Of a stretch of DNA of 18,076 bases, positions 237-17,757 are shown piece by piece. Positions within the stretch are counted from its first letter, which is position 1; the number at the start of each line of letters is the position of its first letter. The position numbers and the translations under genes were made by a program. The stretch is taken from positions 1 to 18,076 of the forward strand of contig JBFRWI010000169.1 of assembly GCA_051439505.1 (NCBI GenBank), in the 5' to 3' direction. Under the pieces are notes generated by a model that saw only the letters and a program-made list of their open reading frames with translations, did not search any database and was not told where the DNA came from. The stretch comes from Hormoscilla sp. Its GTDB lineage: Bacteria; Cyanobacteriota; Cyanobacteriia; Cyanobacteriales; Desertifilaceae.

Positions 237-1905
<1,669 letters not shown>

Positions 1906-2036
1906 TTCTAGATCTACGCCAATTAGTAGGACTGGCAGATGCGGCAGATAAACGTCTTGGCATCAGGCATAATAAATCACCATATCTAATATCTTTCAAT
2001 CTCCCATAGGGGCGGGCAACATCTCTTGCCCGATCG

Positions 2037-2119
2037 CCCGGTTTCTTTAAACCAAGAAACCGGGTTTCTACTACTCTATTGGCTAAGGAACAGATATGTT
2101 GTCAAGAAACCCGGTTTCC
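2037..2119. repeat. AGAAACC(G/C)GGTTTCT repeat doublet plus a half copy
   Basis: AGAAACCGGGTTTCT 2055-2069 and inverted AGAAACCCGGTTTCC 2105-2119 (35-nt spacer); half copy CCCGGTTTCT at 2037-2046. Same family as 16462-16744. Confidence 0.9.
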
Positions 2120-3961
2120 GAGCCCCATTGCCAACTTCTCCAAATTTTCTTTACGCCACTTAGCATCTGCCTTTCTATCTGTCCGCAACTCCAACACCCG
2201 CATGCCCTTTTCCGGCAGTGGGTTCAACCTTTGTTGAAGCTGTTCCCACCCGGCAATCAATTCATATTCTACATTATAAGTAGCACACAACTGGGCAAAG
2301 TCAATCTCCTGGGGCGTAGCAAAAAACTCTTCAAAGGGCGGATCGAATTGGGAGATGGGCAGCATCTCAAATATACCACCTCCCCGATTATTAATCAAGA
2401 CTATGGTCAAATGTCCCACCAGTTTATGGGATAGCAAAAATCCATTGGTATCGTGCAATAATGCTAAGTCTCCCGTTAGCATAACACAGGGTTGATGCCG
2501 ATGGGCAATTCCCAAAGCGGTAGATAAGGTGCCGTCAATGCCATTGGCACCCCGGTTGAAAAAGGGTTGAATTTCCAGATTGTTTGGTTTCCAGAAATAT
2601 TCTACATCCCTCACTGGCATGCTATTGGCAATAAATATCGGCGTTCCCGTCGGGAATATCTGGGATAGTAACCACGCTGCTTTCCCTTCAAATAAATGTT
2701 CTATCTTTGACATGGTTTTGTCTAAAGACTCTCGCACCTTTCTTTCGGCATCACGCCATGCTTTCAGGTAAGCAGAACTCACCCGAGAACATGACTCCAT
2801 CATGGCAGAGAGATTTTCTATTGATGTTCTTAAATGAATTGTTTTCCCATGAATGGGGTCGAGGTTGTGATGACTGGGGTCTATTACCCAAGTTTGCGGC
2901 TTTTTCCCTGTTAACCAGGCCCGCAGTTGCTTGCTGGTGGGAAAATCTCCAATCTGGATGACTGTTTCAGGGGCGAGTTTTTCTGCTAATTCTTCATTCC
3001 TCAAGATGATGTCGTAGGTGGATATTATATTATCATTCAGTTGGAGATAGTTCCTCACAGGTGATAGTCCTTCTGCTAATACTGGAAACTTTAATGCTTC
3101 CGAAAGATGGGCGATCGCCTGTACATACTCTTTCGCCCGCCTCGGTTGCGCTACCCCAGCAATAATTATCCCCCGATCCATCCCCACCATAAAGGGTGGG
3201 GGTGTGGTCTGCATTTGTTGCAACCAGGATCCCCCCCAAACCCCCCCTTGCAGAAGGGGGGGCTTTGAAGCCCCCCTTTTTAAGGGGGGTTTGGGGGGAT
3301 CCTGCGCCTGGGAGGGTCCATGAACAAAGCCCGCCTGGGCGGACTGTAGAGTTATTCCTGCGAAGAAATCATCCTCGGAAAGTTCTGATTGCAATGCTTC
3401 TGCTTCTGCTTGTGCGATCGGGGCAAGGGGGTCGCGAAATGGGACATTCAAATGCACAACTCCAGGAGTAGGAAACAGGGTACATTCCCAGGCATGAATT
3501 ACCGTTTGTCGCAGATATGCTAACATTTCCATTTCCAGGGATGGCAATGCTAACTCTGCTTGCCAGTTCGGGTAATTCCCATATAATTTTATTTGGTCGA
3601 TCGCCTGTCCAGCATGGCAGTGCCGCAGTTCCGGCGGGCGATCGGCTGTTAAAATCAATAGAGGTACTCGACTTTCTCGCGCCTCGATCGCTGCTGGATA
3701 AAAGTTCGCACCCGCCGTCCCCGAAGTACAAATTAATGCTACTGGCAATCCCGTGCTTTTGGCAATTCCCAGGGCAAAAAAGGCTGCCGATCGTTCGTCC
3801 AACACTGGTATCGCTTCTATTTGGGGGTTTTGGGCAAACGCTACCGTTAGGGGAGTCGATCGCGATCCCGGACAGGCGATCGCTGTTTTCAATCCCAGTC
3901 GCTTTAACGTTTCTACTAAAATTGAAGCCCAAAGAAAATTTACATTCCGGAAATCCAGCAT
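2102..3961 (-). CDS. menD: SEPHCHC synthase MenD (phylloquinone/menaquinone pathway) with an in-frame repeat-derived insertion
   Basis: Motifs CPGSRSTPL, DERSAAFFALG, CTSGTAGANFYPA, TADRPPEL, NSMPVRD, NRGANGIDG and the ThDP-binding GDLALLHDTNG..NNRGGGIF. Confidence 0.96.
   Translation of the reverse strand: MLDFRNVNFLWASILVETLKRLGLKTAIACPGSRSTPLTVAFAQNPQIEAIPVLDERSAAFFALGIAKSTGLPVALICTSGTAGANFYPAAIEARESRVPLLILTADRPPELRHCHAGQAIDQIKLYGNYPNWQAELALPSLEMEMLAYLRQTVIHAWECTLFPTPGVVHLNVPFRDPLAPIAQAEAEALQSELSEDDFFAGITLQSAQAGFVHGPSQAQDPPKPPLKRGASKPPLLQGGVWGGSWLQQMQTTPPPFMVGMDRGIIIAGVAQPRRAKEYVQAIAHLSEALKFPVLAEGLSPVRNYLQLNDNIISTYDIILRNEELAEKLAPETVIQIGDFPTSKQLRAWLTGKKPQTWVIDPSHHNLDPIHGKTIHLRTSIENLSAMMESCSRVSSAYLKAWRDAERKVRESLDKTMSKIEHLFEGKAAWLLSQIFPTGTPIFIANSMPVRDVEYFWKPNNLEIQPFFNRGANGIDGTLSTALGIAHRHQPCVMLTGDLALLHDTNGFLLSHKLVGHLTIVLINNRGGGIFEMLPISQFDPPFEEFFATPQEIDFAQLCATYNVEYELIAGWEQLQQRLNPLPEKGMRVLELRTDRKADAKWRKENLEKLAMGLGNRVS
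3200..3345 (-). mobile_element. Chimeric MITE/REP insertion inside the menD coding sequence
   Basis: 3200-3325 is the near reverse complement of the MITE at 13729-13881 (end GGGTGTGGTC-TGCATTTGTTG and the GGATCCCCCC..GGGGGGATCC hairpin at 3225-3304). 3319-3345 (CATGAACAAAGCCCGCCTGGGCGGACT) matches the repeat at 16790-16816. Confidence 0.85.
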
Positions 3962-6263: not shown

Positions 6264-6581
6264 ATCAGAGAAACCCACCCATACCGAACCTGGCATCGGG
6301 AGTACACTCAAGGGTTGCGTTACCACCGGCGTATGCGATCGGGGAGGTAAAAGCCCGACGCAGGCATGTAGAACATTTGCCATATCTACATTTTTTCGCG
6401 ATCGGACTGTGAGTCGCCGGTCGCCACCGCTGATGGCCCTCACGGGACGTGAGGAGTGACCTTCTCCACCGAAGGAGTTCTCCGTTGGGGATCTCTTTAA
6501 CGCAATCATGTAGTCGCGCTCCAGATCCAGGTTTCTGGGTTACGGTTGACAGGTAGCTAGATTATTGCCTGAAGAAAAAAC

Positions 6582-7361
6582 ATGACCTTAAATCCAAAAC
6601 ATATCCTATTGACCGCCCTCCTGTTGCTAGCACTGGGAGGTTCAATTGTTTTGAATTTTAGACTATATAATCGAGCCAAGCAGTATTACCTAGAACTCAA
6701 TGAAACGAGATTAGATCCTTTGGGCTTAAGCCACTACCCTATCAATCTCCAGCAATTGCCTAATGCGAATAAAATGCGGGTTATCTTCTTAGGGGACTCT
6801 AGAGCCGCTAGTTGGATAGCCCCTCAGCTCGATGGCTATAGGTTTATTAATCGTGGAGTGTGTTCCCAAACCTCGGTGCAGACGATCGGCAGGTTTGCCG
6901 AACATCTGGGTTTCTTGCAAGATGGTGATGTTGTGGTTATCCAGGTCGGTATTAACGATTTGAAAACTATTGCCTTGTTTCCAGAACGCCGACAGTCAAT
7001 TGTTGCTAATTGTAAAAATAATATTCAGGCAATTGTAGAAGCATCTAGGAAAAAAGGTGCTACGGTAATTGTTACGACAATATTTCCCGTGGGGGAAGTG
7101 CCATTGGAACGTAAACCGTTCTGGTCGGATGCGATAGATAGGGCCATTACCGATGTTAACGCTTACATTGAGACATTAGCTGAAGATGGAAGTCATCTAT
7201 TTGATGTCTTTTCTCTGCTGGCAGACAGTGAAGGCATGATGCAACAGCAGTATGCAAAAGATGAGCTACATTTAAATGAACGCGGCTACGCGATTCTCAA
7301 CCAGAAATTGGTACAAATACTTCTGACAATACAATCTCAGACAACCGACCCAGCGGGGTAA
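6582..7361 (+). CDS. SGNH/GDSL-family hydrolase with N-terminal membrane anchor or signal
   Basis: Block I FLGDSRA, block II NRGVCSQTS, block III QVGINDL, block V DELHLN; hydrophobic N-terminus. Confidence 0.9.
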   Translation: MTLNPKHILLTALLLLALGGSIVLNFRLYNRAKQYYLELNETRLDPLGLSHYPINLQQLPNANKMRVIFLGDSRAASWIAPQLDGYRFINRGVCSQTSVQTIGRFAEHLGFLQDGDVVVIQVGINDLKTIALFPERRQSIVANCKNNIQAIVEASRKKGATVIVTTIFPVGEVPLERKPFWSDAIDRAITDVNAYIETLAEDGSHLFDVFSLLADSEGMMQQQYAKDELHLNERGYAILNQKLVQILLTIQSQTTDPAG

Positions 7362-12576: not shown

Positions 12577-12627
12577 CCGAACCCTAAAGGGTCCGGCTAA
12601 AAGAACGAAGCCCGCCTGCGCGGGCTA
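12577..12627 (-). repeat. Two-hairpin dispersed repeat (GCCCGC..GCGGGC + TAGCCGG.CCCTTTAGGGTTCGG)
   Basis: CCGAACCCTAAAGGGTCCGGCTAAAAGAACGAAGCCCGCCTGCGCGGGCTA. Other copies at 14055-14103, 14200-14248 and 16767-16816. Confidence 0.9.
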
Positions 12628-12749: not shown

Positions 12750-13001
12750 ATGAGATTAGTATGGGACGAGCAGATTATGGAAAGAATATCGGTCAATCCT
12801 CAAATACGTTTTGGCAAACCTTGTATCGCTGGCACTCGCATTACTGTCCAGGAAGTGCTGGAACTACTGGATGCAGGACTTTCATTTCAAGACATTATGC
12901 GCGATTACTATCCAGATATTCAAGTGGAGGACATCCGCGCCTGTCTTAAGTATGCTATTGCATTGATAGCGGCTGAAGATATTCACTATCTGTCTGCATA
13001 A
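12750..13001 (+). CDS. DUF433-family putative antitoxin
   Basis: RISVNPQIRFGKPCIAGTRITVQEVLELLDAG.S..DI..DYYP.I..EDIRACLKYA. Alternative start at ATG 12777. Confidence 0.92.
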   Translation: MRLVWDEQIMERISVNPQIRFGKPCIAGTRITVQEVLELLDAGLSFQDIMRDYYPDIQVEDIRACLKYAIALIAAEDIHYLSA

Positions 13002-13003
13002 AA

Positions 13004-13447
13004 ATGAGATTATTGCTGGACCAAAACATATACGCTGTGACAGCAAGATTGCTCATAGACGCTGGGCATGATGTTATTCTAGTAGCTCAACTTGGTCTTT
13101 CCCAGGCAAGTGATGAAGAAATACTTACAACAGCGCGGGAACAAAACCGGATCATGGTCACGGGAGATAGAGATTATGGGAACCTGGTTTTTGTTAAAGC
13201 TATTGTATCGGGTGTTATCTACCTGCGGATATCACCGGCAAACATAAACGCAATCGGAAGCCAACTAGAATTAATTCTACAAACTTACCCGGAAGTAGAA
13301 TTAGCACAATCTTTTGTGATTGTAGAACCAAGTAGAGTTGCGACTAAGTTCCCAAAAACTTACACATCTCTCATATTTAGAGGAATCATCAGTAATAAAA
13401 AAGCTATTTTCGGTATAAAAAACTTATCAAGTTTACGTAGGATATAG
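13004..13447 (+). CDS. DUF5615-family PIN-like putative toxin (C-terminus possibly aberrant)
   Basis: MRLLLDQNI..GHDV..ASDEEIL..A....RIMVTGDRDYG.LVF...GVIYLR; starts 2 nt after the DUF433 stop. Confidence 0.88.
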   Translation: MRLLLDQNIYAVTARLLIDAGHDVILVAQLGLSQASDEEILTTAREQNRIMVTGDRDYGNLVFVKAIVSGVIYLRISPANINAIGSQLELILQTYPEVELAQSFVIVEPSRVATKFPKTYTSLIFRGIISNKKAIFGIKNLSSLRRI

Positions 13448-13701
13448 CAGAGCAGGCGCTCGTCTTACTTGAGAGGGGCAAATGAAGCGCAAGTCCACTT
13501 GCTTTTAGTGATGCAAGTCCACTAAGCTTGAAATTAGCAGTGGATGGCTAGCCCTGGCTGCTAACTATAAGCGCTCGCTGGCTTTGGGCCACGAGTTTTG
13601 CTGGCTGCGGCCTCCCGTGTCGAAAGATGCGGATGTTATACTTGCACCGATCTAGTTGTTAGATTTGTGAGGGTTAAACGCAGCACATAGGTTGAGAAGA
13701 C

Positions 13702-13960
13702 TACAGCACTTCTCAATAAGGTGAGGTAGGGTGTGGTCAAAACCCGTTGATCGTTCATGGTACCCCCCAGTCGTCGGATCCCCCCAAACCCCCCTTAAAA
13801 AGGGGGGCAACCGGTGCGCCCCCCCTTCCCAAAAGGGGGGGCTTGGGGGGGATCCTCTACAACAAATGCATGACCACACCCGGTGAGGTACAGTGAAAGC
13901 CTTGCTATCACAGGGTTTCATCGCTTGATGCTGTACCTCATAATTTCGATAAATGCTATA
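13702..13960. mobile_element. Outer MITE-like element with TA(C/T)AGCA..TGCTATA ends, interrupted by an inner MITE
   Basis: Removing the insert and one TSD gives a left arm TACAGCACTTCTCAATAAGGTGAGGTACAG, which matches the reverse complement of 13931-13960 (TATAGCATTTATCGAAATTATGAGGTACAG) at 22/30 positions. Confidence 0.75.
13729..13881. mobile_element. 153-bp MITE with 11-bp TIRs and a 9-bp target-site duplication
   Basis: TIRs GGGTGTGGTCA (13729-13739) and TGACCACACCC (13871-13881); flanking direct repeat GGTGAGGTA at 13720-13728 and 13882-13890; internal poly-C/poly-G hairpin at 13776-13855. Confidence 0.9.
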
Positions 13961-15687: not shown

Positions 15688-16443
15688 CTAATAGAACTTT
15701 TCTAAGGCGACTTCATAAGCATAACTATTAGCACGGACAAAATCGATGGCCGCCGTGACAATATCGTCCCGTTCCAAAGTCTGGGCTCTTTGGGCCCAAG
15801 GCAAAACCATCTGCCCGGGAGATTCTTGCTTGGGTTTAAGTTTGAGAATATTTGGCAAGAACTTTCTCCCCCAGTGGGAGCGGTTATCAGACTTAGCCCG
15901 GGGTTTATATCTGTTACAAAAGTGTTTATATTTTTCGGCACAGCCATCTAAATTATCGGCAAGTTCGAGGAACGCCGGATGCCATTGGGTCAACCCATCA
16001 TCTGTTAAGCGTGCATAGGATCCATAGTTAGAAAAGTCATAGAAAAAACCTTGTTGCATGCCGGCAGTTTTGGGATTGGCATGTATGTAGCGGAGGGTAT
16101 TTAACACCCTTTGGAAATCGGAGTTGGGAAATCCTTCACTAAAATAACGCTTCTCCCAGAAATGGCCGGTGCGGTTTAACATCCGATTGAAGCACATCGC
16201 CGTATACCAATTAATCCAATGCATGATTTTGGGTAAATCTTCCGGTTGGGCCGGTTCCAGGAGATAATGGACGTGGTTGGACATGATGCAGAGTCCATAG
16301 AGTTTGAACTGGTACTTCTCAATGGCCTTTTTGAGGGCGTAGAGGAAGACTTGCTTACATGTGTGGTTGGTCAGCTTAAATTCCCGGTTGTTGCAGCGGG
16401 AGGTGACGTGGTAACAATAGTCGGGTAAGAGTTCTCGTGACAT
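15688..16443 (-). CDS. REP-associated tyrosine (HUH, Y1) transposase, RAYT/TnpA-REP type (251 aa)
   Basis: YHVTSRCNN, the HUH motif MSNHVHYL, RTGHFWEKRY, the catalytic Tyr in LRYIHANPKTAG and FSNY. The NP..AG tail and C-terminal extension favour RAYT over IS200 TnpA, and there is no tnpB. ATG 16443 is used because the longer ORF start is repeat-derived. Confidence 0.88.
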   Translation of the reverse strand: MSRELLPDYCYHVTSRCNNREFKLTNHTCKQVFLYALKKAIEKYQFKLYGLCIMSNHVHYLLEPAQPEDLPKIMHWINWYTAMCFNRMLNRTGHFWEKRYFSEGFPNSDFQRVLNTLRYIHANPKTAGMQQGFFYDFSNYGSYARLTDDGLTQWHPAFLELADNLDGCAEKYKHFCNRYKPRAKSDNRSHWGRKFLPNILKLKPKQESPGQMVLPWAQRAQTLERDDIVTAAIDFVRANSYAYEVALEKFY

Positions 16444-16461
16444 AGGAGTGGGTGGGAGGCC

Positions 16462-16744
16462 AGAAACCGGGTTTCTTTTACAGATTATCATCTTGGTGGC
16501 CTCAATGACAACAGAAACCCGGTTTCTCGGAACCAAGCGCGTGGGGGCCAGAAACCGGGTTTCTTTGGTAAATGCTCATCTTCGTTGCTCAATGACAACA
16601 GAAACCCGGTTTCTCGGAACCAAACCCGCCCGTGTCCGCCAGAAACCGATGGTACGGGGAGACCTCCCGTGGGGGTTGAGAAACCGGGTTTCTTTGGAAA
16701 TGGCTGCAAATTGCCCTTAACTTGATAAAAGAAACCCGGTTTCT
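16462..16744. repeat. Array of three inverted AGAAACC(G/C)GGTTTCT doublets upstream of the RAYT
   Basis: Copies at 16462, 16513, 16550, 16600, 16679 and 16730 in alternating orientation; intra-doublet spacers of 36, 35 and 36 nt; partial copy at 16641. The first two doublets form an ~88-bp tandem duplication. Confidence 0.92.
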
Positions 16745-16766
16745 TGTCCGTTGGCCATCGACTACC

Positions 16767-16816
16767 CCGAACCCTAAAGGGTCCGGCTACATGAACAAAG
16801 CCCGCCTACGCGGGCT
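16767..16816 (-). repeat. Copy of the GTAGCCGG..CCCTTTAGGGTTCGG / GCCCGC repeat
   Basis: CCGAACCCTAAAGGGTCCGGCTACATGAACAAAGCCCGCCTACGCGGGCT. Confidence 0.9.
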
Positions 16817-17001
16817 GTGCGATCGCCCGTTGGTGGTGGATGCGATCGCGAACATAACGTAGGGGCACGGCAGGAGCAAATTATCGGTAAAGATGAGAAA
16901 TGTTTGTATCGCCGTACCGCAGCCCCATGGGGATGGGAATGCCGATGCGATCGACGGTTGGCGTCACGCGGGCTCTCCCCTTCAACACGAACAAAATTAT
17001 T

Positions 17002-17039
17002 TAAAAATGCGCAGGAGAGCCCTGCCACAGGGCGCTCCT
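17002..17039 (-). terminator. Putative intrinsic terminator of the candidate ncRNA
   Basis: Minus strand AGGAG-C-GCCCTG-TGG-CAGGGC-T-CTCCT followed by GCGCATTTTTA. The U-tract is offset from the stem by 5 nt. Confidence 0.45.
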
Positions 17040-17203
17040 TGTGGAGTGGAAGAGAGCGATCTAGAGATTTACCTGACCCGGAGTTACGCTCTGGCGCGCC
17101 TATTTCCGTTGCTTGACCCAAGTGAGGCGCTTTTGGCGCAGTCCGGGCCGGGCATCCCTGGTTTCGCTTGGGCTTTTTCCAAGCCCCCATCAACCTTCAT
17201 TAT
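17005..17203 (-). ncRNA. Candidate structured non-coding RNA (~200 nt), family not recognised
   Basis: Lies between a near-consensus promoter and a terminator-like hairpin. GC-rich with several long helices (17061-17082 with 17142-17161; 17117-17128 with 17161-17172; hairpin 17170-17186). No credible ORF. Confidence 0.55.
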
Positions 17204-17209
17204 GAATAT

Positions 17210-17239
17210 AGTATAGCTAACGGGAGTGGAACTTGTCAA
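17210..17239 (-). promoter_or_regulatory. Near-consensus sigma70 promoter
   Basis: Minus strand TTGACA (17239-17234), 18 nt, TATACT (17215-17210), with an A-tract UP-like element upstream. Confidence 0.65.
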
Positions 17240-17470
17240 GGGAAAAGGTAAATTTTTTTCCCCTCTCTAGGTAGATATTTATTTTATCTTCATTGAACGT
17301 GATACTCTACCCATAAATGGGCGACAGGTGTGTGAGTCCGGTTGTAGTATCGTAAAATGAAGGAAGTATAAGACGATCGGGTTATGAATGGGAATATCTG
17401 TTAATCGGAAAATCGGTTTTGGCAAGGGGGCCCATGGGCGCGATCGCATGTAATTGATAGCCATCTGACA

Positions 17471-17536
17471 AGAAACCGGGTCTACTGCGACCAATGGTTA
17501 AGGAAAAAAGCAGCCATAACATCAATAACCCGGTTT
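17471..17536. repeat. Degenerate AGAAACCGGG doublet
   Basis: AGAAACCGGGTCTACT..TGGTTAAGGAA..ATAACCCGGTTT. The spacer resembles that of the 2055-2119 doublet (CTACT..TGGCTAAGGAA). Confidence 0.65.
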
Positions 17537-17645
17537 GGATCCCCCCAGGGAGAGGTATTCGCAGTAGCAAAAGACCCCCGATCGCATCCCTGTAATACCA
17601 TTTTGTTAAAGATATGATAGACTTGACGGTAGCACTCATTCTCAG

Positions 17646-17692
17646 GAGGCGGAGCCTCAGAAGACCGTTCCCAGGTAGAACCTGGGAACGAG
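17646..17692. repeat. GAGGCGGAGCCTC + CGTTCCCAGG..CCTGGGAACGAG hairpin repeat
   Basis: Two adjacent hairpins; the second is related to 12681-12709. Confidence 0.8.
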
Positions 17693-17757
17693 AGGGTAGG
17701 TTTTTTCTCTATCATAACTTTAATAAATTGGTATAATACATGGCTATCCTAGGGGCT

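Follow-up and report, generated by a model that had tools for sequence, protein, structure and literature searches.

A dispersed repeat of Hormoscilla that carries a putative small-RNA gene with its own promoter and terminator

Results

The repeat and its distribution

The window considered here (18,076 nt of Hormoscilla sp. DNA, contig JBFRWI010000169.1) contains, at positions 16967–17293, one of 28 copies of a dispersed repeat of about 330 bases in its own genome (blastn, E ≤ 1e-30). Read on the minus strand, this repeat carries, in this order, a sigma-70 promoter, the sequence of a structured RNA about 200 nt long, and an intrinsic terminator. In our judgement it is highly probable that the copies make up a previously uncatalogued, dispersed and self-contained family of small-RNA genes that is both real and under selection. 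The fuller reading, in which each copy holds a complete small-RNA gene that is likely transcribed and whose product probably serves in trans as a scaffold for protein binding, is favoured with moderate confidence. The first-pass annotation had described a single structured unit at 17005–17239. That unit is real, but it is one of 28 dispersed copies and reaches from about 16967 to 17293; its repeat nature and its extension beyond these narrower limits had been overlooked.

As delimited by blastn against its own genome, the unit (16967–17293, minus strand) consists of an upstream module, the promoter, the RNA gene, the terminator and a 3' extension. Two copies (C156 and C212) align with it over 16967/16968–17293, further copies over 16992–17293. 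The upstream module (17240–17293, minus strand) is common to part of the family, with a mean pairwise identity of 61% in the copy alignments, and beyond 17293 the window copy departs from the other copies. The 3' extension (16967–16999, minus strand), likewise taken from copy alignments, belongs to subfamily A. Identity among the 28 copies is 75–95%, and their settings are unrelated to each other; 22 are complete, five are truncated by contig ends and one is recombined.

Relatives of the repeat occur in a few other filamentous cyanobacteria, among them two of four genomes of the same genus (G001, 2 copies; G004, 3 copies; G002 and G003 are RNA-negative). A genome from another family of the same order (G078) harbors at least nine copies of the RNA unit in an order-level search with model R1, a named Oscillatoriales MAG has 11 loci, and two MAGs titled Hormoscilla have five. 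Three contigs of one metagenome carry relatives as well; 18 of 21 metagenome pattern matches obtained no score with the model and were taken as chance. The loci of two of the relatives' copies (L015 and L016) are empty in the window's own genome. Searches for the RNA unit returned no match among viral contigs and none among plasmids and phages. A full-text literature search found no earlier description of the element, nor did a term search in PMC6520454 bring one up.

Promoter, terminator and transcript

The promoter is close to the sigma-70 consensus (11 of 12 matches) and consists of a −35 hexamer TTGACA (17239–17234, minus strand), a spacer of 18 nt and a −10 hexamer TATACT (17215–17210, minus strand). 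Among the 22 complete copies of the window's genome the −35 hexamer is invariant (22 of 22, 100% identity), and the −10 hexamer has a mean identity of 88%, compared with 66% for the spacer and 65% for the leader. A promoter of the form TTGACA, 16–19 nt, TAnnnT is found in 26 of 26 assessable copies and is present also in the copies of G078, the MAG and the metagenome. Judged by the promoter spacing, transcription is predicted to start near 17203. At the opposite end, an intrinsic terminator (17003–17038, minus strand) is built from a hairpin (17014–17038) and a U-run (17003–17007). It is found in 25 of 25 assessable copies, its hairpin is kept in distant copies too, and its stem has compensatory variants among copies (GGAGAGCCC/GGGCUCUCC, GGGGAACCC/GGGUUCCCC and GGAGAGCGC/GCGCUCUCC). 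The promoter and the terminator-like hairpin that had been proposed to bound the unit are therefore both borne out on the minus strand.

The predicted transcript (17203–17003, 201 nt) folds with −81.5 kcal/mol (z = −2.83), and one of 200 shuffled sequences is as good. Records of run X1, which are contigs of a metatranscriptome that possibly contains DNA, cover 17006–17175 with a summed depth of 200–420 and do not show strand or ends. No contig covers 17210–17617, which we do not take as evidence of absence; the drop in cover upstream of 17175 falls on a less conserved part of the repeat, so that divergence explains it equally well as a transcript end. We infer that RNA is likely made from every copy; the support for transcription as such comes from these contigs. 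A coding unit was considered for two ORFs (16774–17193, minus strand; 16893–17216, plus strand) and rejected, because the ATG is missing in many copies and because differences in the length of the P1 loop that are not multiples of three break the frames.

Structure and covariation of the RNA

The RNA folds into a 5' hairpin (P1), a long arm (P2–P5) and the 3' terminator, and compensatory changes support this fold. P1 (GGGCUU-GGAAA-AAGCCC, 17170–17186, minus strand), a hairpin named already in the first-pass annotation and recovered in folds and alignments, has a loop of 5 nt in the window copy and of up to about 19 nt in others, and shows one compensatory change from U-A to G-C (copy L020). 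The long arm is closed by P2 (5' strand AGCGA, 17164–17168; 3' strand UCGCU, 17055–17059; minus strand), placed by consensus fold and covariation. Three of its five pairs covary (AGCGA/UCGCU, AACGA/UCGUU, AGCAU/AUGCU, AGCUA/UAGCU), and these compensations are visible in a plain MAFFT alignment as well. P3 pairs CCAGGGAUGCCCGGCCCGGA (17142–17161), located inside the block AAGCCC..CUGCGC, with UCCGGGUCAGGUAAAUCUC (17064–17082), which contains a conserved AA bulge; this is the long minus-strand helix that had been predicted. The changes within P3 are exclusively switches from G-U to G-C or A-U, 10 of 16 pairs never vary, and CCCGGCCCGGA of the 5' strand is retained in all distant copies except L048.

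The distal domain (17085–17140, minus strand), a variable region defined by folds and covariation, comprises P4 (17136–17140 with 17085–17089; 4 of 5 pairs covary), P5 (17126–17130 with 17096–17100; 4 of 5 pairs covary) and an apical loop of about 25 nt. Short-form relatives have a distal domain that is about 20–25 nt shorter, without P5 and its loop. A single-stranded linker with the motif ACUCCAC (17039–17054, minus strand) is unpaired in the minimum-free-energy fold and in the consensus fold, and the motif is retained as ACUC(C)AC in distant copies.

Pair counts refer to 50 sequences fitted to model R1, an alignment that thereby leans towards the structure of the model and in which 97.1% of cells are paired. 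Both-sided changes occur in 13 of 37 pairs, compared with 4.5 ± 1.5 in shuffles (0 of 500 reach the observed number, although related copies are not independent and the shuffle control therefore overstates significance) and 2–5 in slid controls. Within the window's genus alone, double changes are found in just two of the 37 pairs.

The crossing and alternative helices specified in the first-pass annotation find no support. Its pseudoknot GCCCAAGCGA/UCACUUGGGU has a compensatory change in none of nine pairs, its pairing frequency is not above that of shuffles, and it clashes with the covarying helix P2, to which its AGCGA belongs instead. Another pseudoknot of 4 bp, formed by a 5' GGUU and AACC (17158–17161), is paired in 91.8% of cells; its one change (GGCG/CGCC) occurs in a single copy, L050, and is reached by 20 of 500 shuffles. 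We treat this possible pairing as a lead only.

Conservation within the family follows a mosaic. Among the same 22 copies, the block AAGCCC..CUGCGC is 98.5% identical (37 of 43 alignment columns invariant) and the helix strands are 92–98% identical (3' strands 92%), followed by the linker with 78% and the loops with 51–73% (P1 loop 51%, distal domain 73%). Distant lineages share only a stretch that begins shortly before the −35 hexamer and ends with the terminator, and their flanking modules differ. As a pattern in aligned sequences, this mosaic fits a selected RNA gene. Gene conversion between copies could contribute to the uniformity of the core, yet it would not spare the loops.

Comparison with known RNA families

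Rfam 15 gives no match to positions 17003–17240 of the window copy, either at gathering score or at E ≤ 10, and none that overlaps the RNA in eight diverse copies at E ≤ 10. The earlier view of the unit as a structured but unrecognised RNA some 200 nt long, unlike tmRNA, RNase P, SRP or 6S RNA, therefore stands, and homologs with covarying stems have been added to it. The Rfam 15 families covered include HEARO, tracrRNA and the Cyano-1/2 motifs, to none of which the RNA belongs; a canonical 6S gene (88.6 bits) and an SRP RNA gene are located elsewhere in the genome. The unit has three features of a stand-alone small-RNA gene, namely its own conserved sigma-70-type promoter, an intrinsic terminator and a structure backed by covariation.

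Several known systems are similar in part. Small non-autonomous repeats with promoter and terminator signals that can yield small RNAs are described for Neisseria (Correia/NEMIS) and Coxiella (QMITEs) (PMC10969869 and PMC5896051). The RNA unit is also a small non-autonomous dispersed repeat with promoter and terminator signals, but it holds an entire gene, in which selection maintains the promoter hexamers, the helices and the terminator; this gene is the only part common to distant lineages, and the presumed mobilising ends are swapped. With 6S RNA (RF00013) the unit shares a length of about 200 nt, a dominant long irregular hairpin and an own promoter and terminator, but it has no similarity to the 6S model and no large central bubble, and it is multicopy with a patchy distribution. 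HEARO/omega-RNA (RF02033, tied to IscB) is likewise structured and a few hundred nucleotides long, and filamentous cyanobacteria carry tens of dispersed copies of it on mobile DNA. In contrast to it, the RNA unit does not match the HEARO model at E ≤ 10, has no IscB/HNH ORF beside it and lacks a variable end resembling a guide, and it has an internal promoter and terminator.

Mode of action

We propose that the RNA would act in trans as a protein-binding scaffold via the invariant irregular helix P3. Both strands of P3 and its bulge are fixed in sequence, beyond mere pairing, and for this reason we tentatively suggest protein binding as the mode of action. No recurrent ORF family is present within 2.5 kb of 28 + 9 copies, except for frames overlapping the repeat. 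RAYT, a Tn5-like transposase and IS110 were considered as protein partners and rejected, as none is co-distributed with the RNA. Two long-form copies in G078 lie near paralogous genes (308 and 317 aa) in arrangements that differ from each other; by eye, their products look like putative transposases of the PD-(D/E)XK 'Rpn' type, which many cyanobacteria have.

It is unlikely, though by no means far-fetched, that the RNA acts by base pairing, with the ACUC(C)AC linker 5' of the terminator binding to GGAG-type ribosome-binding sites. The cyanobacterial small RNA Yfr1 pairs with ribosome-binding sites through the motif ACUCCUCACAC, and both RNAs have a C/U/A-rich unpaired motif directly before the terminator hairpin. 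In the family described here this motif, located in a linker that the folds leave unpaired, reads ACUCCAC in the own genus and ACUCAC in short forms, and the linker of long forms (G078, MAG) contains CCACUCACC / CUCCACAC. Yfr1, however, is about 60 nt long, single-copy and phylum-wide, whereas the RNA unit is about 200 nt long, multicopy and rare, without an Rfam hit. Moreover, conservation is highest in the double-stranded P3 arm, the linker being less conserved than the helix strands, and a blastn-short search of the RNA against the whole genome recovered only chance-level 13–15-mers outside the family, with no extended complementarity that would indicate an antisense target.

Mobility and alternative readings

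The protein-binding RNA proposed above would be encoded on a unit that is probably a mobile repeat. Like MITEs, the unit is small and non-coding, with 28 dispersed copies and with relatives' copies at loci that are empty in its own genome. The first-pass annotation had stated that a common MITE would refute its interpretation; the unit is indeed a dispersed and probably mobile repeat, but it behaves as a selected RNA gene. The opposite reading, a plain non-autonomous transposon (MITE/REPIN-like) whose hairpins are DNA features, whose promoter- and terminator-like sites are incidental and whose RNA is a by-product, is improbable. It would account for the scattered copies and for a presence and absence that differ between species. 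It would also account for the surroundings. Of 25 copies, eight lie within 130 nt of a left inverted repeat (GGGTGTGGTCA...) that belongs to an abundant MITE family; a full-length relative of this family encodes a Tn5-like transposase and generates 9-bp duplications. The 3' extension leads into the same inverted repeat in other copies, and in the window copy the latter is unrecognisable. REP-type palindromes follow 16 of 19 short-form copies, and REP-like palindromes are located at most 300 bp from 8 of the 28 copies, compared with 2.8% of random sites.

Against the transposon reading stand invariant promoter hexamers around an 18-nt spacer of 66% identity, a pattern that transposase binding does not predict, as well as strand-specific G-U pairs and one-sided changes from G-U to G-C. 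The restriction of what distant lineages share to the −35-to-terminator stretch, between flanking modules that differ, argues in the same direction. Inspection by eye detected no target-site duplication around the RNA unit (copies C156 and C64) and no matching second inverted repeat in the copies examined: the other end of the unit (GGTTGTGTGAC) matches the MITE terminal repeat at 6 of 11 positions. A link to the Tn5-like transposase was rejected, as the gene is present in G002, which lacks the RNA, and was not found in G001, which has it. A comparison with the four genomes of the same genus yielded no clean empty site for the window copy or for the C221 copy, because their flanks are repeats or too diverged.

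We consider that the DNA may spread by riding interchangeable repeat modules. In the window's genome the module would be the MITE family with Tn5-like ends, and in distant genomes REP-type palindromes may serve as the vehicle. A further, distinctly improbable reading is that of a selfish RNA gene, in which a self-expressing structured RNA is the unit of selection and hops between DNA vehicles because it recruits or programs a trans-encoded enzyme or serves as an RNA-based addiction or defence factor. The vehicles would be Tn5-type MITEs in one lineage and REP arrays in another, and candidate trans-encoded enzymes are a transposase, a recombinase or a nuclease. If true, this would constitute a new class of mobile element, guided by or dependent on RNA, to which no protein gene is linked.

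A related reading is very improbable, namely that an enzyme of a mobile element, encoded at another place, uses the RNA as its cofactor or guide, in the manner of the omega-RNA of TnpB/IscB, of the IS110 bridge RNA or of a similar pairing yet to be discovered. Orphan copies with the RNA alone would then be mobilised or used in trans. A multicopy structured RNA with a promoter on mobile DNA is compatible with this reading, as is the location of short-form copies next to REP palindromes; some elements of the IS110 family are known to insert into REP sequences. However, the IS110 DEDD transposase (PF01548) has no match in the window's genome (93% complete, 28 RNA copies), where a bridge RNA would have such a recombinase adjoining it. 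Nor does the unit have the adjoining nuclease gene and copy-specific guide end of a TnpB/IscB omega-RNA. No segment of it is hypervariable in the way of a guide, since its 5' leader and loops vary yet stay homologous; it has no recurrent neighbour ORF, and it matches neither HEARO nor any other Rfam family. With its internal promoter and terminator, the RNA ends in a hairpin and a U-run within the repeat and therefore, unlike an omega-RNA, cannot extend into the flanking DNA.

We finally note the gene adjoining the window unit, an IS200-like Y1 (RAYT) gene (15688–16536, PF01797, E = 1.3e-18) surrounded by palindromes AGAAACC(C)GGTTTCT, which bears on the suggestion that folding of the plus strand equals or surpasses that of the minus strand, possibly as ssDNA bound by this HUH enzyme. 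Apart from this neighborhood, the suggestion draws on one 12-bp plus-strand pairing in the window copy (17117–17128 with 17161–17172), and it can practically be dismissed: copies with AAAAGGG have lost this pairing and short forms do not have it, the plus strand has z = −1.26 as RNA, compared with −2.86 for the minus strand, neither strand stands out as DNA (z = −1.58 for plus, compared with −1.21 for the other strand), and the conserved helices contain 4–5 G-U pairs on the minus strand that turn into A-C mismatches when read as plus. Of the 150 other genomes sampled from the order, 29 contain the RAYT family, and none of these 29 matched R1 in an order-level search that apparently drew on the same genomes; in the RNA-positive G078 the RAYT was not found at E ≤ 1e-20. 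The unit is thus not co-distributed with the RAYT as a REP/REPIN-RAYT system would be. Palindromes AGAAACC(N)GGTTTCT beside many copies recall such systems, but the RNA unit measures about 330 bp with a complex fold, compared with a 20–40-nt palindrome pair.

Conclusions

Dispersed repeats of bacteria are in most cases classed as MITEs or REPs and given no further attention, whereas here each copy would be a complete small-RNA gene in which selection keeps the promoter, the fold and the terminator while the surroundings drift or are exchanged. Distant cyanobacteria carry the same RNA gene on different vehicles, which suggests that an RNA function has spread horizontally. The family raises the questions which protein or target the RNA serves, and whether RNA genes can themselves behave as mobile genetic units. 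As a practical gain, a covariance model is available that flags the family in genome annotation. If expressed from its approximately 28 loci, the RNA would rank among those with the most template copies in a sponge symbiont.

Promoter, terminator and copies of the RNA unit

The minus strand of the RNA unit carries a near-consensus sigma-70 promoter (11 of 12 positions), with a −35 hexamer TTGACA at 17239–17234 and, after an 18-nt spacer, a −10 hexamer TATACT at 17215–17210; a terminator scan places a hairpin at 17025–17011, followed by a T-run. The promoter and terminator-like hairpin proposed in the first-pass annotation are therefore borne out on this strand. Folded as RNA, the minus strand of 17239–17005 reaches −88.9 kcal/mol (z = −2.86, 2 of 200 shuffles as good) and the predicted transcript, 17203–17003, −81.5 kcal/mol (z = −2.83). 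Both the annotated long helix and the hairpin GGGCUU/AAGCCC are present in the minimum-free-energy fold. The plus strand, which had been suggested to fold as well, possibly as single-stranded DNA, reaches −85.4 kcal/mol with z = −1.26 as RNA, and the DNA folds of both strands are unremarkable (z = −1.58 and −1.21). The G-U pairs, 4–5 per copy, exist in the minus-strand reading only and thus also argue against folding of the plus strand or of ssDNA.

Searched against its own genome, an assembly of 6.47 Mb in 232 contigs, the RNA unit gives 30 matches. Local blastn at E ≤ 1e-30 gives 28 copies with 75–95% identity to the window copy; 22 are complete, five are truncated where their contig stops (C138, C211, C89, C65 and C81), and the copy on contig C145 comprises the 5' half only. 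The repeat unit common to the copies runs from 16967 or 16992 to 17293 (minus strand), hence the RNA unit is wider than the annotated 17005–17239. Other repeats excepted, the surroundings of the copies are unrelated. In the alignment, TTGACA, a −10 element TAnnnT and the terminator occur in every copy in which the respective region is assembled (promoter 26 of 26, terminator 25 of 25).

Distribution among cyanobacteria

Using blastn, copies are found in two of four same-genus genomes (two in G001, three in G004) and are absent from the 36 other relatives searched. For two copies in relatives (L015 and L016), the corresponding loci in the window's own genome retain the flanks and lack the copy; both comparisons reveal a replacement and no clean insertion. 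R1, a covariance model of the RNA core (156 positions, 37 pairs, built on 29 sequences), matches a single genome among 150 others of the order, one from another family (G078), with at least 9 copies (E = 2e-17 to 7e-9), and none of a phylum-wide sample of 150 other genomes. A degenerate DNA pattern scanned across one genome per species recovers 16 loci, 5 in two Hormoscilla sp. MAGs and 11 in one Oscillatoriales cyanobacterium MAG. Of 21 pattern matches among metagenome contigs, R1 recognises three, which come from a single assembly; the viral contigs, plasmids and phages searched contain no match. The few positive genomes across the order, phylum and species scans point to a family that is rare, patchy and multicopy wherever found. 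A short form, whose distal domain is about 20–25 nt shorter and lacks helix P5 and its loop, occurs in the metagenome, in G078 and in the Oscillatoriales MAG; P1–P3, promoter and hairpin are retained.

Consensus structure and covariation

From 5' to 3', the consensus fold consists of a leader, hairpin P1, a long arm P2–P5, an unpaired linker and the terminator. The arm comprises P2 (AGCGA/UCGCU), P3 (the annotated long helix, in which an AA bulge is conserved), P4, P5 and a terminal loop of about 25 nt. Most pairs are invariant within the genus, where double changes occur in only 2 of 37 pairs; the covariation test is supplied by the distant copies. Already in a plain MAFFT alignment P2 appears as AGCGA/UCGCU, AACGA/UCGUU, AGCAU/AUGCU and AGCUA/UAGCU. 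When 50 sequences are aligned to R1, the paired fraction of cells is 97.1% and 13 of 37 pairs show two-sided changes, compared to 4.5 ± 1.5 in shuffles (0 of 500 reach 13), in an alignment that is fitted to the model and made of copies related to one another. Slid controls, with partners moved by 1–3 columns, give two-sided changes in 2–5 pairs. Homologs with covarying stems therefore exist. Double changes are found in three of five pairs in P2 and four of five each in P4 and P5; P3 is nearly invariant, its sole changes being switches from G-U to G-C or A-U.

The pseudoknot GCCCAAGCGA/UCACUUGGGU of the first-pass annotation is rejected: none of its nine pairs shows a double change, its 86.8% of paired cells equals the shuffles, 4–5 copies lack its A-U pairs, the short forms lack its 3' partner, and AGCGA is claimed by the covarying P2. 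Another crossing contact, between the 5' GGUU and the AACC located between P2 and P3, appears possible. It is paired in 91.8% of cells, with a U-G wobble in two copies; compensation comes from one sequence, L050 (a long form in G078), where GGCG faces CGCC, and equally good values are reached by 20 of 500 shuffles.

Mosaic conservation

Compared pairwise, the 22 complete copies show a mosaic of mean identities. The −35 and −10 hexamers (100% and 88%) are separated by a spacer of 66% identity and lie between an upstream module (61%) and a 5' leader (65%). The segment from GGUU through the 5' strand of P1 has 94% identity, the P1 loop 51%, and the block from AAGCCC to CUGCGC 98.5%, with 37 of 43 columns invariant. 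The distal P4/P5 domain (73%) is followed by the 3' strands of P4–P2 (92%), the linker (78%) and the terminator hairpin (85%). Neutral repeat decay or plain gene conversion would not keep hexamers and helix strands while spacer and loops drift. Because the former are spared, we infer that purifying selection probably acts on an RNA expressed from many copies. Protein-coding ORFs crossing the unit were considered and rejected, since the P1 loop varies from 5 to about 19 nt by amounts not divisible by three and the ATG is gone in many copies.

Expression

One public metatranscriptome run (X1) contains part of the window. Its contigs, aligned at 85% likeness, reach a summed depth of 200–420 over 17006–17175, falling to 0.41 at 17176–17209 and zero at 17210–17617. 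This cover agrees with the predicted RNA and lends it weak support, as contigs show neither strand nor ends, the library may hold DNA, and the upstream part that lacks cover is at the same time less conserved.

By far the highest depth in the covered part, about 3200 at 16768–16801, falls on a short hairpin repeat at 16766–16835 (…AACAAAGCCCGCCUACGCGGGCUG…), which also occurs at 12604–12627. It matches the Rfam CRISPR-DR28 model weakly at 16794–16817 (28 bits, under the gathering score of 35) and barely above threshold at 12604–12627 (35.7 bits). Both sites are outside any array; the repeat is dispersed, with many copies of 95–98% identity in same-genus genomes.

Associated repeats and possible mobility

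The genome abounds in a MITE family that is bounded by GGGTGTGGTCATGCATTTG... and ...CAACGGGTTTTGACCACACCC and carries varied cargo (504 terminal motifs). Closely spaced end pairs cluster at 100–200 bp, and at least two longer pairs are flanked by 9-bp duplications. One of these, on contig C81 (36974–39096), is a full-length relative encoding a 462-aa Tn5-type transposase (PF14706, PF02281, PF01609). The cargo includes G/C-tract hairpins, REP pairs and the RNA gene, and a member of the family lies in the window at about 13690–13890 (minus strand).

In 8 of 25 RNA copies a 3' extension reaches the left end of this family; GGTTGTGTGAC, at the opposite end of the unit, matches the MITE end only in degenerate form, if at all, and two copies inspected by eye (on C156 and C64) show no target duplication. 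The 3' modules of other copies are different ones; one of them starts GGCGATCGC. REP-type palindromes (GAAACC-N-GGTTTC, at most one mismatch) follow the RNA gene in 16 of 19 distant short-form copies, and in the distant genomes other hairpins lie upstream. What all lineages share is limited to the segment that begins shortly before the −35 hexamer and ends with the terminator, which suggests that the RNA gene is selected cargo on interchangeable DNA vehicles. It would spread on MITE-type modules in the window's own genome and with REP-type palindromes in distant genomes.

Two further repeats are located nearby. A short one at 16900–16961 adjoins the RNA unit, with copies 80–87% identical on contigs C116, C100, C188, C226 and C157. 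Another of about 140 bp at 17594–17740, in which a T-run follows a long hairpin, is dispersed in dozens of copies (76–93% identity) in all four same-genus genomes.

Possible function and partners

The best-supported reading is an RNA that would act in trans and be made from many loci. Recognition by a protein, as an RNP or a sponge, is a tentative but reasonable proposal; it is favoured because the strands and bulge of P3 are fixed in sequence while the other helices covary freely. The 5' strand CCCGGCCCGGA is kept in all distant copies but one (L048), and the 3' strand with the bulge, UCCGGGYCWGGYAAA, is fixed across lineages. The unpaired ACUC(C)AC, which is conserved and situated directly before the terminator, would permit base pairing with GGAG-type ribosome-binding sites as a rather unlikely alternative. 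No extended complementarity to the RNA is found elsewhere in the own genome. That the RNA is a cofactor of a mobile-element enzyme is very improbable, as every feature of this reading that could be tested is absent.

Around the 28 + 9 copies examined, no recurrent ORF family turns up within 2.5 kb other than reading frames that overlap the repeat. The window neighbour at 15688–16536 (minus strand) encodes an IS200-like Y1/HUH (RAYT-type) protein of 282 aa (PF01797), beside five palindromes AGAAACC(C)GGTTTCT within 16513–16744 (at about 16513, 16550, 16600, 16679 and 16730), a motif that occurs 404 times genome-wide. The link drawn earlier between this enzyme and the RNA is not supported: of the 150 other genomes in the order sample, 29 carry a homolog (30 of 151 overall), none of these 29 has an R1 match in the order-level search, and no homolog was found in RNA-positive G078 at E ≤ 1e-20. 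The Tn5-like transposase was likewise rejected as a partner, being present in RNA-negative G002 and not found in RNA-positive G001; a search for an IS110 recombinase in the window's genome found none.

The two long forms in G078, L038 and L050, each have a paralogous gene (308 or 317 aa) within about 200 bp, at about 433–1357 (minus strand) for L038 and about 1881–2831 (plus strand) for L050, in differing orientation. By eye we take its products to resemble PD-(D/E)XK 'Rpn'-type putative transposases, which are common in cyanobacteria. The window also encodes, at 12750–13447 (plus strand), a DUF5615/PIN-like protein (147 aa) downstream of a DUF433 protein (83 aa), a pair that looks like a toxin-antitoxin arrangement.

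Canonical 6S and SRP RNA genes are present at other loci of the own genome, therefore the family replaces neither. On contig C93 the model of the bacterial small SRP RNA is matched twice, on the same strand and about 100 bp apart (6375–6469 and 6574–6670; 47.6 and 61.2 bits, both over the gathering score), which may represent a tandem duplicate of ffs.

As anticipated for an unrecognised RNA, no Rfam 15 family matches the window region at the gathering score or at E up to 10. A full-text literature search found no description of the element, and the Hormoscilla comparative-genomics paper (PMC6520454) mentions neither repeats nor small RNAs in its passages around the searched terms. Small RNAs borne on dispersed repeats are a known kind; this one would be unusual as a complete, selected gene on exchangeable vehicles.
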